A DNA stretch of 64,000 nucleotides from Candidatus Omnitrophota bacterium (GCA_023247915.1 JAHFFN010000001.1:9417-73416); one strand, 5' to 3'; positions 6,169 through 21,843 are shown, numbered from the stretch's first letter. The notes: generated by a model from the sequence alone, not told the origin. Numbers and translations are program-made.

Positions 6169-7884
6169 TTAGAGCTGTTTTAGCTGTCCGTCTTTTAAAA
6201 GATAATGAAAATCGGATATTCGAGCAACTTCCTCTTGATGACTGATCATCAAAACCGGTAGGCGCCTCTTCAAGCTTTTGACCGTCTCAAGGATATGATT
6301 TTCATTTTCCGCATCCAATTGATTAGTCGCTTCATCAAGCACCAAAAGGGAGGGTTTGCGCAACAGGGCTCTAGCCAAAGCAATGCGTTGTCTCTCTCCG
6401 GCTGAAAGACAAATCCCGCGGTCGCCTATCGGAGTTTGAAGCCCTTGAGGAAGCGTTTTTGCTAGAGACTCCGCTGAAGAAAGTTGTAGTGCTTCAAAAA
6501 TCTCCTCGGAGTTTGCCGCGGGATTAGCCCATAAAAGATTGGCCAATAAAGTATCGTTAAACAAAAAAGTATCCTGTCCGACGTATCCGACACTCCCCCG
6601 CCAACCGGAGATGTCCTGATTCGAAAGCCGGACATCATCCACGAAGATCGAGCCTTTTTGTGGCTTGAGGAGTCCTGTCAAAATATCCGCGAGCGTGCTC
6701 TTACCCGATCCGGAAGCGCCGGACAACACGACAATGGTTCCGGAGGAGATCATTAAATCCGCTCCCCGCAAAATAGGCGTCTGGCCTGAAACAGAATAAC
6801 CAAAATGAATATCTTCCAGTCGCACCTGACGCGTCACCGGAAAAGTTTTGCGATCGCTTCCTACCGAAACCTCCGCGTGGGCGGCCGCTTCTTCCTCGAT
6901 TTTTCTTAAACGTGAAAATGACGGCAGCGCTTCTAAAAATTCTTGAAAATTTTGATAGGCGGATGTCAGTTGAGGTAGAAGTCTCGCGAAGAAAAAAAGT
7001 AAAATCAAAATTTCCGAGATAGGCATTTTTAAAACTCTATAGATAAAATAAAACAATGCCACCAAGATCACCGCGGAAGCTCCATCGAAAAAAAACCGGA
7101 TGTTTTGCATGGAATTAAAAAAACGGGCGCGTCTTTGGCTGATGGTCTGTACAGCGGTGCGAAAACTTTCCATCTCGTTTTTTTCCATCGAGTAGCTCTT
7201 AGCCATCTTGAAGCGTCCCAAATGACTTAAAATCAGCTCATAAAAAAATTTGGAGGCTTCTGAAATTCCCTCACCCGCCTCCCGCGATTCTTTGGAGTGA
7301 CGCCGTATGAGAAAAAGCATGCTACCGCCGCATAAAACAGAAAATACAGTAAATGCCCATGAGATCTTGACGCAGAAAAAAAGATAAACGGCAGCGATCC
7401 CAAGAGACGTGACAAAAGAACTCAAAAAAAATGTGGCATCTTCCAGATTTTGCGTCTCGACCGTCAAGGCTTGGAGAAGATCTGACCCTTTTTTTCTGGC
7501 GACATAAAGCCATTCGGCTCGCATCAAGGCTTCATAAATTCGGACTCGAAACAAATCCGTCAACGATCTTTCCAGTCGAAACCGCCACAACGATTGGCAT
7601 CGCACCAACGCCGCGCGGACAGCCATCAGCACTCCAAACAAAAGAAGGACTCCGGCTAAGGTCGGTTTTAAATGAACCCCAGAAAAAAGGGCTCGGAAAA
7701 ATAGCTCTATTTTCCCGGCGGCGCTTGCCTGGGCGGGAATTCCGGCAATCGCTAAAAGAGGGATTAAAAGCAAAGCGGTCATCCCCTCAGTCAAAGAAAC
7801 GATCCCTGTAAGTGCCAAAGAAAAATAAATCTCTTTTTTGGATTCTGAAAAAAGCGCTTTTAAGTACGCTTTAAAATTTTGCAT
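6169..7884 (-). CDS. ABC exporter, fused permease-ATPase (McjD-like lasso peptide exporter candidate)
   Basis: 571 aa. N-terminal 6-TM domain, C-terminal NBD with Walker A (GASGSGKST), signature (LSAGERQRIALARAL) and Walker B (LVLDEATNQLD). It is the last gene of the RiPP operon. Confidence 0.8.
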   Translation of the reverse strand: MQNFKAYLKALFSESKKEIYFSLALTGIVSLTEGMTALLLIPLLAIAGIPAQASAAGKIELFFRALFSGVHLKPTLAGVLLLFGVLMAVRAALVRCQSLWRFRLERSLTDLFRVRIYEALMRAEWLYVARKKGSDLLQALTVETQNLEDATFFLSSFVTSLGIAAVYLFFCVKISWAFTVFSVLCGGSMLFLIRRHSKESREAGEGISEASKFFYELILSHLGRFKMAKSYSMEKNEMESFRTAVQTISQRRARFFNSMQNIRFFFDGASAVILVALFYFIYRVLKMPISEILILLFFFARLLPQLTSAYQNFQEFLEALPSFSRLRKIEEEAAAHAEVSVGSDRKTFPVTRQVRLEDIHFGYSVSGQTPILRGADLMISSGTIVVLSGASGSGKSTLADILTGLLKPQKGSIFVDDVRLSNQDISGWRGSVGYVGQDTFLFNDTLLANLLWANPAANSEEIFEALQLSSAESLAKTLPQGLQTPIGDRGICLSAGERQRIALARALLRKPSLLVLDEATNQLDAENENHILETVKSLKRRLPVLMISHQEEVARISDFHYLLKDGQLKQL

Positions 7885-8999
7885 AATCCCTCAAATCCCC
7901 GCCGAACATACAAAACAGGAACCCATAAACGATTGTGGCAAGAATATTTTTTTAAAATATATTCGGAGCCCGGAAACGCGTAGCGCCACAAAAAAGAAAA
8001 ACGTTCTTTGGGCGGGAGCGCTTTCACGTTGTGAATCAAATCTCGAGTTCTGGGATTTCCCCTTTTCAAATAAGACGCGGAAGGCTCTTCATGCTCCTCT
8101 TTATCGCGCTTCAGGCGTCCAAGCACTTCTTCCGACACGGCTGTCCCGATCCATTCCTTCGTGAGCGTCAACGCTTCCAGACAAATCGCCGCCGCCTTTT
8201 TTTCTTTGGCTAAAGTCAAAAAAGAATCGATTTCCTCTTTTTGCATGCGGCTAAAAATCAAATGAATATCGTAAAGCCAAATAAGACGCGATTCGTTCGC
8301 GTGATGTCCCGTTCGGTGAATGGCCGCTAAAAAAAGAGCTTGTTCCAAACAAAGTGTTTTGGCGGATCCCGGGAAAGACGGAAGCAGGACGGATTTTTTC
8401 TGAATCTCTTCAAAACTCAACATCTGACTGAAGGTGTAAGCATTGCTAATTTTCCAATGGAAATCAAGGCTGTGGCGGATCTGATGCGCGTCTTTTTTAA
8501 CGGCCGTCCACTCATGACTAGGAACCTGAAGCGGTACTGTATACCCAAGATTCTTCACGATCCGCTCAATTTTTTCATTGTCCCGCTCGTGAATCAAGAA
8601 ATCGATATCCGCCGAGGGTCGCAAGTAAGCGCTGGGATAAACCAGATAAGACAACGGAAATCCCTTGAGCAAAATATTTTCTATATTTTCTTTTGAAAAA
8701 ACAGCCAAAATATTCTCGATTTCCATTTTTCGTACCAGGTAAATCGCGATATATTTTTCGGAAATTGCCTCAAGCCCTTGACGCAATTTGAGCGGCCATA
8801 AATCCCACATTTCCGAATTTTTCAAAAGATAACAGACAAGCGGAGAGACGCTATTGGCGTCCGTTCTATCCAAAAATTCTTCGACACCCTCCTCCGGCAC
8901 GCAAGGCGCTAGTCGCCCCTCTGCTTTTAAAATCGATGCGATCAGACCGTCAAAGAAGATCGCGTTCGACGGCCTGGATGAGCGCTGGGAGATCAGCAA
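7860..8999 (-). CDS. Nucleotidyltransferase-family protein (PF14907-like) of the kind found in kinase-containing lasso peptide clusters
   Basis: 379 aa. LLKGFPLSYLVYPSAYLRPSADIDFLI contains the DxD of the minimal nucleotidyltransferase fold. The gene overlaps both the kinase gene and the ABC gene, consistent with translational coupling. Confidence 0.6.
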   Translation of the reverse strand: MLISQRSSRPSNAIFFDGLIASILKAEGRLAPCVPEEGVEEFLDRTDANSVSPLVCYLLKNSEMWDLWPLKLRQGLEAISEKYIAIYLVRKMEIENILAVFSKENIENILLKGFPLSYLVYPSAYLRPSADIDFLIHERDNEKIERIVKNLGYTVPLQVPSHEWTAVKKDAHQIRHSLDFHWKISNAYTFSQMLSFEEIQKKSVLLPSFPGSAKTLCLEQALFLAAIHRTGHHANESRLIWLYDIHLIFSRMQKEEIDSFLTLAKEKKAAAICLEALTLTKEWIGTAVSEEVLGRLKRDKEEHEEPSASYLKRGNPRTRDLIHNVKALPPKERFSFLWRYAFPGSEYILKKYSCHNRLWVPVLYVRRGFEGLCKILKRT

Positions 9000-21553: not shown

Positions 21554-21843
21554 ATTTTTATTTCAATAAGGCGGGCATCCGCCAATTGATTCAAAACCTG
21601 TAAGATATCCTTCTCGCACGATTCTGTATCCACATCGTATTCTTTCAAAACCGCTTTTTGGATATCCCGCACAAAAATAGGCTTGTCTGAAATAAGATTC
21701 CACACAAACGCGCCCACCGTGTTCAAACCGTAATACATGCCCGCTTTGAGATCCAACACCACCGCCTCTCCGGACAAATCACAAGAAACCTGGTCTTTAG
21801 CCAGACAAACCAAAGCATCCAAAGACAGAGCATTGTTTTTCAT
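21550..21843 (-). CDS. Lasso peptide B1 protein (PqqD-like RRE)
   Basis: 97 aa. AVVLDLKAGMYYGLNTVGAFVWNLI...IQKAVLKEYDVDTESCEKDILQVLNQLADARLIE is a canonical PqqD/RRE. Confidence 0.8.
   Translation of the reverse strand: MKNNALSLDALVCLAKDQVSCDLSGEAVVLDLKAGMYYGLNTVGAFVWNLISDKPIFVRDIQKAVLKEYDVDTESCEKDILQVLNQLADARLIEIKI

Follow-up and report, generated by a model that had tools for sequence, protein, structure and literature searches.

The 64,000-nt stretch of DNA considered here comes from a Candidatus Omnitrophota bacterium (GCA_023247915.1 JAHFFN010000001.1:9417-73416; in the following the window, to whose positions all coordinates refer), and at 6169-21843 it carries what is almost certainly a lasso-peptide gene cluster of the split-B type, interleaved with genes for glycosyltransferases and oxygenases. 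Its closest described counterparts are the clusters of pseudomycoidin (psm) and of paeninodin (pade), both from Bacillota, and of Bradymonas sediminis (bsf), which are like it in a split B1/B2, an AsnB-like cyclase, a precursor-adjacent gene for a kinase (of the HprK type in those clusters), the position of a nucleotidyltransferase (PsmN/BsfN) and an ATP-binding cassette (ABC) exporter. PsmN is needed for the hexoses that are added onto the phosphate of pseudomycoidin (PMC6993621). The bsf cluster documents that the kinase/nucleotidyltransferase type occurs in Gram-negative Bradymonadales as well, and its kinase BsfK modifies Ser3, not the C-terminal Ser (PMC10368454).

Concerning the attachment of sugars, the enzyme of the davasin pathway acts on the mature lasso peptide, the Ser of which becomes polyglycosylated (PMC11912497). 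In an in silico survey of lasso clusters of rumen Firmicutes, kinases were present in 85% and glycosyltransferases in 36% of the complete clusters (PMC7533575), and a glycosyltransferase also adjoins a cyanobacterial kinase-type lasso cluster (PMC6993621). Hydroxylation is described for canucin A, the linear precursor of which is hydroxylated by the 2-oxoglutarate (2OG)/Fe(II) enzyme CanE, aided by the protein B1 with its recognition element (RRE) for peptides that are made by the ribosome and modified after translation (RiPPs; PMC9266682). A review of 2026 counts Ser glycosylation and hydroxylation among the lasso modifications and mentions no lipid-linked or periplasmic route. Extracytoplasmic three-component glycosylation is presented as a general concept in a further paper (PMC11127046). 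In the literature, no description was found of GT-C enzymes (polytopic membrane glycosyltransferases) or of RRE-fused 2OG oxygenases within a lasso cluster, and nothing relevant turned up on lasso peptides in connection with PF13231, PF14907, GT-C, ArnT or polyprenyl donors. A first-pass annotation of the window had called a RiPP operon embedded in polyprenyl-phosphate-sugar glycosylation machinery an arrangement not yet described. This is too broad, as enzymes of the glycosyltransferase family 2 (GT2) type have been published for the davasins (PMC11912497) and, as GT2/EpsH neighbours, for the kinase/nucleotidyltransferase lasso clusters of rumen Firmicutes (PMC7533575), beside the cyanobacterial case (PMC6993621); as far as the literature was searched, it holds for GT-C enzymes and RRE-2OG fusions.

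Families were assigned by Pfam and NCBIfam profile searches of the window proteins, and the genes given below for the range 1688-29767 are on the minus strand unless noted otherwise. The lasso core genes follow each other in the order B1-B2-C-A-K-N-D. B1 (21550-21843) is a stand-alone RRE of the PqqD family (PF05402, 4e-18, 66 bits where 23.4 is the cut-off; with NF033536 it reaches 69.5 bits and falls short of the required 80), and B2 (19857-20303) is a transglutaminase-like leader peptidase (PF13471, 7.6e-20, 71 bits; NF033537, 68.3 bits, cut-off 33). The AsnB-like cyclase C (11507-13372; PF00733, 1e-48) reaches 669 bits with NF033535, for which the cut-off is 525; the closest cyclases found are 44-48% identical, and those from a scan of GTDB species 24-38%. 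It begins with M-S-G-L where AsnB has M-C-G, such that Ser stands in place of Cys, whereas the ATP motif SGGLDS is kept. The trio of B1, B2 and a cyclase with Ser for its N-terminal Cys is what the first-pass annotation had put forward, and the profile searches place these families at the same genes; the lasso reading is strengthened by the leader motif of the precursor and by the scores of cyclase and B2 above curated cut-offs. The HPr-rel-A / XrtA-PEP-CTERM amidotransferase system, considered because similar genes occur in exopolysaccharide loci, was rejected: TIGR03108 (216 bits, cut-off 817), TIGR04353 (18 bits, cut-off 35) and TIGR04352 remain far below their cut-offs here, and these models do so also in two related lasso loci (L034, L037; L and P numbers denote loci and proteins retrieved in the homologue scans).

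The precursor A (9856-10011) is an open reading frame (ORF) of 51 aa, MSKQKENRVSTKPESSKKKSYSSPKLTVYGTIHKITAKGTRTNDAASRAAT, which is predicted by public gene callers too, and it divides into leader and core as MSKQKENRVSTKPESSKKKSYSSPKLTVYGTIHKITA|KGTRTNDAASRAAT. The leader shows exactly the spacing Y(-17)xxP(-14)xL(-12)...T(-2), with Y21, P24, L26 and T36, a spacing regarded as fixed (PMC10368454); the match to NF033528 (lasso_cyano; E 3.5e-6, 26.9 bits, cut-off 33) covers the leader part only. Asp44 is position 7 of the core, which gives a 7-residue ring K1-D7. Cleavage one residue earlier would give a ring A1-D8 with Ile at -2, for which a precedent exists (PMC10368454); behind this option stands the alignment with AKPGGIKD (L008), AKAGLNND (L025) and SKNGTNND (L046). 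The computed monoisotopic neutral mass of the unmodified lasso is 1400.712 Da for K1-D7 and 1471.749 Da for A1-D8. The core ends in Thr, not Ser, as does the precursor of L093; it contains Lys and Arg and no Pro, and its tail AASRAAT is poor in bulky residues. Homologous precursors are found in six loci (L007, L008, L025, L034, L046, L093), and a looser motif search in other GT-C-linked loci yielded no convincing further precursor. A candidate sigma-70-like promoter (10018-10045, minus strand; TTGATA-16-TG-TATAAT, 11 of 12 positions matching, with extended -10), the best between 5 and 24 kb, ends 7 nt before the precursor ATG, which would mean that the precursor has a promoter of its own within the operon and an mRNA almost without leader. 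Since the total of sigma-70-like matches in the region is not above that of shuffled sequence, this promoter is a lead only.

The gene K (8950-9852) encodes an HprK-related kinase with a P-loop, for which the first-pass annotation's label of HprK-like kinase stands in part: the Pfam profile PF07475 does not match it, and the TIGR04352 match is weak (E 4.8e-8, 32 bits against a cut-off of 200), whereas it is 35-37% identical to the kinases of L007 and L008 and can be aligned from end to end with the kinases encoded in related lasso loci. Among the latter, the kinases of L008 and of the P0003 locus match PF07475 weakly, and that of L007 shows a faint ScmC match alone. At the position where DD is found in each of the five lasso-locus kinases aligned with it, K has TDN, and the matching residues of PsmK, D158 and D159, are an essential metal-binding pair (PMC6993621), so that K, judged by its sequence, may be inactive or altered. 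Owing to this substitution and to the weak family assignment, phosphorylation is less certain than had been assumed at first. The nucleotidyltransferase N (7860-8999; PF14907, 6.8e-39, 134 bits) is situated between K and D, and D (6169-7884) is a fused ABC exporter with transmembrane and nucleotide-binding domains (PF00664 and PF00005). PsmN of pseudomycoidin is placed correspondingly, after the B genes and before D, and is likened to N by this position. The "paeninodin-style set" of the first-pass annotation is accordingly present with regard to K, N and D, with N and D assigned as it had proposed, but the kinase is weakly assigned and the peptide ends in Thr instead of Ser.

Three membrane proteins of the cluster match the PMT_2 profile PF13231, as had been anticipated for three GT-C glycosyltransferases: GTC3 (20300-21553; 4.5e-9), GTC1 (10035-11516, probably starting at ATG 11516; 2.3e-15, with a DE motif) and GTC2, a GTC1 paralogue (15230-16705, plus strand; 2.2e-16). 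The gene of GTC3 overlaps by 4 nt with B1 on one side and B2 on the other, and that of GTC1 is placed between C and A. The AlphaFold2 (AF2) model of GTC3 (pLDDT 90.4, pTM 0.91) has about 10 transmembrane helices, and its best Foldseek matches, all with probability 1.0, are STT3, ArnT, PglB, DPY19 and Pmt4; the model thus confirms a GT-C fold and predicts a cytoplasmic C-terminus. Throughout the GTC3 family, an acidic residue of the first outer loop (the Glu in Y-E-P-F-Y-P) and a Y-P motif are conserved. As oligosaccharyltransferases lead the structural matches, an N-x-S/T sequon was sought in the GT-C-linked cores, and it is not conserved among those compared. Two further polytopic membrane proteins, of 441 aa (23287-24612; weak PMT_2 match) and of 500 aa (21840-23342; without family), precede B1, and hhalign gave no clear relation of the latter to the GT-C family. 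No useful match was obtained when PDB sequences were searched with the GT-C proteins, oxygenase and kinase.

Two GT2 enzymes may supply the GT-C proteins, GT2a (19147-19860; PF00535, 1.7e-26) and GT2b (28290-29006). Both are soluble, 237-238 aa long and without C-terminal transmembrane helices; their best NCBIfam matches, which without exception stay far below cut-off, are to AglJ, PpgS, dolichyl-P hexose transferase and ArnC, such that of the proposed Dpm1/ArnC-like GT2 the family is established and the subtype is suggested at most. An orthologue of GT2a in L017 (49% identity) likewise directly follows a GT-C gene. Upstream of B1, genes for a DegT aminotransferase (24560-25750), a Gmd-like 4,6-dehydratase (26087-27070), a sugar C-methyltransferase (27067-28359) and an S-adenosylmethionine (SAM) methyltransferase (29003-29767) were assigned by profile search, together with a soluble protein of 138 aa without family (25677-26093). 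A small GtrA-type flippase was not met with among the proteins scanned (646-43511). Two membrane-anchored SGNH/AlgX-like proteins, as expected from the first-pass annotation, are encoded at 17903-19150 (a; PF13472 and PF16822, with one N-terminal transmembrane segment) and 16684-17934 (b).

Directly upstream of the cyclase gene, two genes encode 2OG-Fe(II) oxygenases with a C-terminal RRE of the PqqD family, Oxy_a (14325-15194; PF13640 and PF05402) and Oxy_b (13372-14328). In the AF2 model of Oxy_a (pLDDT 86), a jelly roll is followed by a disordered linker and by an RRE of beta3-alpha3 topology, and the nearest folds are the protein prolyl hydroxylases PHD2, Tpa1/OGFOD1 and Pseudomonas P4H. 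The HxD...H triad is invariant in the oxygenase family and is kept by both copies in the window. The fusion to an RRE argues, on the grounds of domain composition, for the precursor as the substrate of these oxygenases; as the core has no Pro, Lys, Asn, Asp or Thr would be the candidate targets. The family is small and its members are mostly stand-alone proteins of about 216 aa, several of which adjoin GT-C genes in lasso loci. In L093 (1-12136 of a 1-Mb contig), two stand-alone oxygenases accompany three tandem lasso-cyclase paralogues, one precursor of 61 aa and a kinase, with Flp/Fap pilin genes nearby. In two other loci (L091, 6695-11017; L092, 2443-6765), a 2OG-PqqD fusion is found directly behind two TldD/PmbA genes and without lasso genes, which may be a different RiPP-like system with the same hydroxylase-RRE design.

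With respect to organization, the minus strand holds nearly all long ORFs from 1688 to 29767, and neighbouring genes are mostly joined by short overlaps, at several boundaries by the 4 nt ATGA; all reading frames of the cluster are intact. The first-pass annotation had described one co-directional, overlapping unit, which applies to these junctions but not to GTC2, the gene of which has a convergent orientation towards one SGNH gene and a divergent one towards an oxygenase gene. The interleaving of lasso and glycosylation genes that it had pointed out is real and recurs in loci of other uncultured bacteria. Not contained in it were the precursor, both oxygenase-PqqD fusions, the strand of GTC2 and, on the flanks, the sugar-nucleotide genes that extend upstream as far as 29767 and those for Wza/Wzc/AsmA that extend downstream as far as 1688. 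All tailoring functions occur as diverged paralogue pairs (GTC1/GTC2 with 35%, SGNH a/b with 39%, Oxy_a/Oxy_b with 36% and GT2a/GT2b with 33% identity), a possible sign that modification takes two parallel routes or affects two sites.

The GTC3 family comprises about 30 word-indexed hits, and 318 representatives with E<=1e-30 among 1.84 billion. A metagenome scan with GTC3 retrieved 80 loci, 42 of them with a true family member. Directly beside the GT-C gene, 15 of these 42 carry B1, B2, cyclase, kinase, nucleotidyltransferase or the same oxygenase family, and in 11 the neighbours are limited to a GT2 gene, accompanied or not by one for a methyltransferase; in the remaining loci the flanks are mostly too short, but several (e.g., L010, L019, L032) have flanks of multiple kb without a match. 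A neighbour-joining tree separates the GT-C family into two clades, one from soil and nearly all lasso-linked, the other with the window, the lasso-linked L017 and many lasso-free modules of GT-C, GT2 and methyltransferase genes. In L017, endonuclease III, PqqD, B2, GT-C and GT2 follow in succession, with PqqD coming directly behind housekeeping genes, whereas the order in L034 is B2, GT-C, oxygenase, kinase, precursor, cyclase and B1; in L037 and on the P0147 contig, Wzc, Wzy_C and Bac_transf genes surround the lasso genes. Furthermore, GT-C proteins are fused to Transglut_core3 (B2; P0205), to a 2OG oxygenase (P0147) and to a SAM methyltransferase (P0214), in each case at the C-terminus, which fits the cytoplasmic C-terminus of a GT-C protein with about 10 helices. 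Tandem double GT-C proteins also exist in the family (P0181, P0308, P0312). Beside the lasso/GT-C genes of two independent soil loci (L034, 266-1432, and the P0147 contig), a gene for a FAD-dependent protein similar to geranylgeranyl reductases or halogenases is situated, which could act on the peptide or on a lipid carrier. The P0003 contig of the same metagenome as the window (ERZ27296333) holds a second lasso locus (cyclase 48% identical) with kinase, nucleotidyltransferase, B1 and an unassigned protein of 382 aa, and an AlgX-like gene at a distance of about 3 kb.

The best explanation of these data is that a lasso cluster of the kinase/nucleotidyltransferase, split-B type has merged with an extracytoplasmic glycosylation system of the polyprenyl-phosphate-sugar type and with two leader-binding 2OG hydroxylases. 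The recurrence and the fusions support, without proving it, that GT-C proteins and oxygenases belong to the lasso pathway. The product predicted from the genes, a hydroxylated and possibly phosphorylated lasso peptide glycosylated outside the cytoplasm, has in our estimation an even chance of being correct. The precursor would be expressed from its own promoter and its leader bound in the cytoplasm by three RRE domains, those of B1 and of the two oxygenase fusions, whereupon the oxygenases would hydroxylate core residues. By analogy with PsmK and PsmN, K might phosphorylate Thr and N extend the phosphate, a step made doubtful by DN instead of DD in K. B2 would then remove the leader, C would close the 7- or 8-residue ring on Asp44, and the peptide would be exported through D. 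At the outer face of the inner membrane, to judge by linkage, fusions and topology, the GT-C enzymes may glycosylate it with lipid-phosphate sugars that the two GT2 enzymes would form from the products of an amino/C-methyl deoxy-sugar pathway, and the SGNH/AlgX proteins may subsequently acylate these sugars. Since the tail AASRAAT has few bulky residues, bulky sugars could act as a plug and keep the lasso threaded.

Several observations weigh against this pathway, and some of them also speak for an alternative that is possible but rather unlikely, namely that lasso genes were inserted into, or recombined with, an envelope-glycan locus (lipopolysaccharide, exopolysaccharide or protein glycosylation), such that the sugar genes decorate a glycan and are transcribed together with the lasso genes by coincidence or for regulation at most. 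The nearest cyclase relatives belong to compact clusters without sugar genes (L007, L008; PqqD-B2-C-precursor-kinase-(nucleotidyltransferase)-ABC), the order of which is kept in the window with sugar and oxygenase genes inserted at B1/B2, B2/C and C/A. The closest relatives of GTC3 (43-46% identity; L009, L014, L015, L044, L094, L095) lie in lasso-free modules, as seen in flanks of up to about 10 kb on each side, with less on one side in several loci: P0124/L094 with FdtA, DegT, Wzy_C and AsmA, P0129/L095 as GT-C-GT2-epimerase, and the other four as GT-C-GT2 with or without a methyltransferase, which indicates that the module has a job independent of lasso peptides. In L009, from a related organism (seryl-tRNA synthetase 57% identical), GT-C-GT2-methyltransferase, SGNH and seryl-tRNA synthetase genes occur together and lasso genes do not. 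None of the other lasso loci seen had GTC1, GTC2 or the SGNH genes, GTC2 is on the opposite strand, and the fusion proteins are metagenome gene calls that could be frameshift artefacts. The flanks resemble a polysaccharide locus, with Wza, Wzc, two AsmA-like, a third AlgX-like and a third GT2 gene in the window outside the lasso genes. Moreover, as lasso maturation is cytoplasmic and GT-C catalysis extracytoplasmic, the pathway needs a post-export step unprecedented for lasso peptides. An insertion alone, however, leaves unexplained the fine interleaving (B1/GT-C/B2/GT2 and C/GT-C/A, with the core order kept and 4-nt overlaps), the recurrence of the GT-C family by lasso genes in 15 independent loci, and the GT-C-B2 and GT-C-2OG fusions.

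Alternatively, the GT2 and GT-C proteins might act like ArnC and ArnT on the producer's own envelope (lipid A or other) and protect it against its cationic lasso peptide. ArnT is among the best structural matches, DegT (ArnB-like), the GT2 enzymes (with ArnC-like matches) and the GT-C proteins together mimic the Arn pathway, the core has Lys and Arg, and the recurrence would be accounted for by an immunity gene travelling, as expected, with the biosynthetic cluster. We nevertheless hold this to be improbable, since the fusion of GT-C to leader peptidase and hydroxylase points to biosynthesis, the oxygenases paired with GT-C in the window bear peptide-binding RRE domains, and the usual immunity device of lasso clusters, the ABC exporter, is already there; to our knowledge, self-protection by GT2/GT-C enzymes in lasso clusters has no precedent. 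Still further down in probability we would place a role of the GT-C proteins mainly as anchors or scaffolds that keep maturation enzymes at the exporter and do not glycosylate the peptide, or a partly decayed cluster with an inactive kinase. Tethering is suggested by the C-terminal fusions to cytoplasmic enzymes (B2, 2OG oxygenase, methyltransferase) and decay by the DN of the kinase, but the acidic residue of the first outer loop and the Y-P motif are conserved family-wide, a dedicated GT2 follows the GT-C gene here and in L017, no reading frame is interrupted and scores with the curated lasso models are good. Merging of the lasso pathway with extracytoplasmic glycosylation could also go further than proposed above, in that the lasso peptide might be the covalent acceptor or primer of a periplasmic, O-acylated glycan, which as many as five GT-C-type enzymes would assemble using lipid-phosphate sugars and which would pass through the outer membrane via Wza/Wzc/AsmA. 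A membrane complex tethering B2 and the 2OG oxygenase at the C-terminus of GT-C would then link cytoplasmic maturation with extracytoplasmic glycosylation, and the product would be a glycoconjugate capped by a lasso peptide; this is a speculation to which we assign very little probability.

Downstream of D follow genes for a Wza-like exporter (5168-6079), a Wzc-like protein (3329-5155) and an AsmA-like protein (1688-3295). At 32164-36493, beyond a divergent M3 oligopeptidase gene (29634-31547), the third AlgX-like gene, the second AsmA-like gene, the third GT2 gene and an epimerase gene show that the glycan-related region reaches beyond 6169-21843. Three tRNA-Ser genes (anticodons CGA, GCT and TGA) and a seryl-tRNA synthetase gene are present in the window (1583-1667, 36764-36970, 36983-38257); one tRNA-Ser immediately adjoins the end of the long unit on the minus strand, where it could mark an integration site, and just beyond it lies a gene for a PhyH-family 2OG dioxygenase (646-1407, minus strand). 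An Rfam search found tRNAs only and no other RNA family. A molybdenum cofactor block (MoeA, MoaC-MoaB fusion, MoaA) with a TauE/SafE exporter gene (39622-43511, minus strand) constitutes an ordinary housekeeping context.

Glycosylation is rare among ribosomal peptides, and the described cases that were found use nucleotide-sugar enzymes (GT-A/GT-B type). If the GT-C enzymes act on the peptide, the latter would be the first RiPP to receive lipid-linked sugars outside the cytoplasm, and the reaction the first tailoring step shown after the export of a lasso peptide; bulky sugars would be a possible natural lock for lassos with small tails. If the sugars go to the envelope, the locus would be a clear merger of a RiPP cluster and a glycan locus, which is much less remarkable. 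By their recurrence in soil metagenomes and by the GT-C-B2 and GT-C-oxygenase fusions, these loci form a defined, testable family and not a single oddity.

Despite the general similarity to known systems, there are several differences. The davasins (igt cluster, Streptomyces davaonensis) are lasso peptides that undergo O-glycosylation by a membrane glycosyltransferase from their own cluster, as is proposed here; the enzyme IgtG, however, is a bifunctional deacetylase/GT2 with four transmembrane helices, not a GT-C protein, and works with no separate lipid-phosphate-sugar synthase, and an architecture of this kind was not met with in any window protein. In comparison to CanE, the RRE is fused to the oxygenase, two copies are present and the fold is nearest to the prolyl-hydroxylase type. 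The glycosyltransferases neighbouring the rumen Firmicutes clusters are cytoplasmic GT2/EpsH enzymes, and GT-C proteins, 2OG-RRE fusions and fusion proteins are not reported there. With the Gtr/Arn systems of GT2, flippase and GT-C, the window shares a GT2 beside a transferase of GT-C fold and a DegT amino-sugar pathway, but among the proteins scanned no GtrA-like flippase; the known acceptors of these systems are glycans, lipid A and proteins, never a RiPP, whereas the module in the window is interleaved with RiPP genes. Compared with psm, pade and bsf, the peptide ends in Thr, the kinase has DN instead of DD, and the order is B1-B2-C-A-K-N-D instead of C-A-K-B1-B2-N-D. In addition to the genes of these three clusters, the window encodes three to five membrane proteins of the GT-C type, two proteins each of the GT2 and the SGNH/AlgX kind, the enzymes of a deoxy-amino-sugar pathway and two 2OG oxygenases fused to an RRE.

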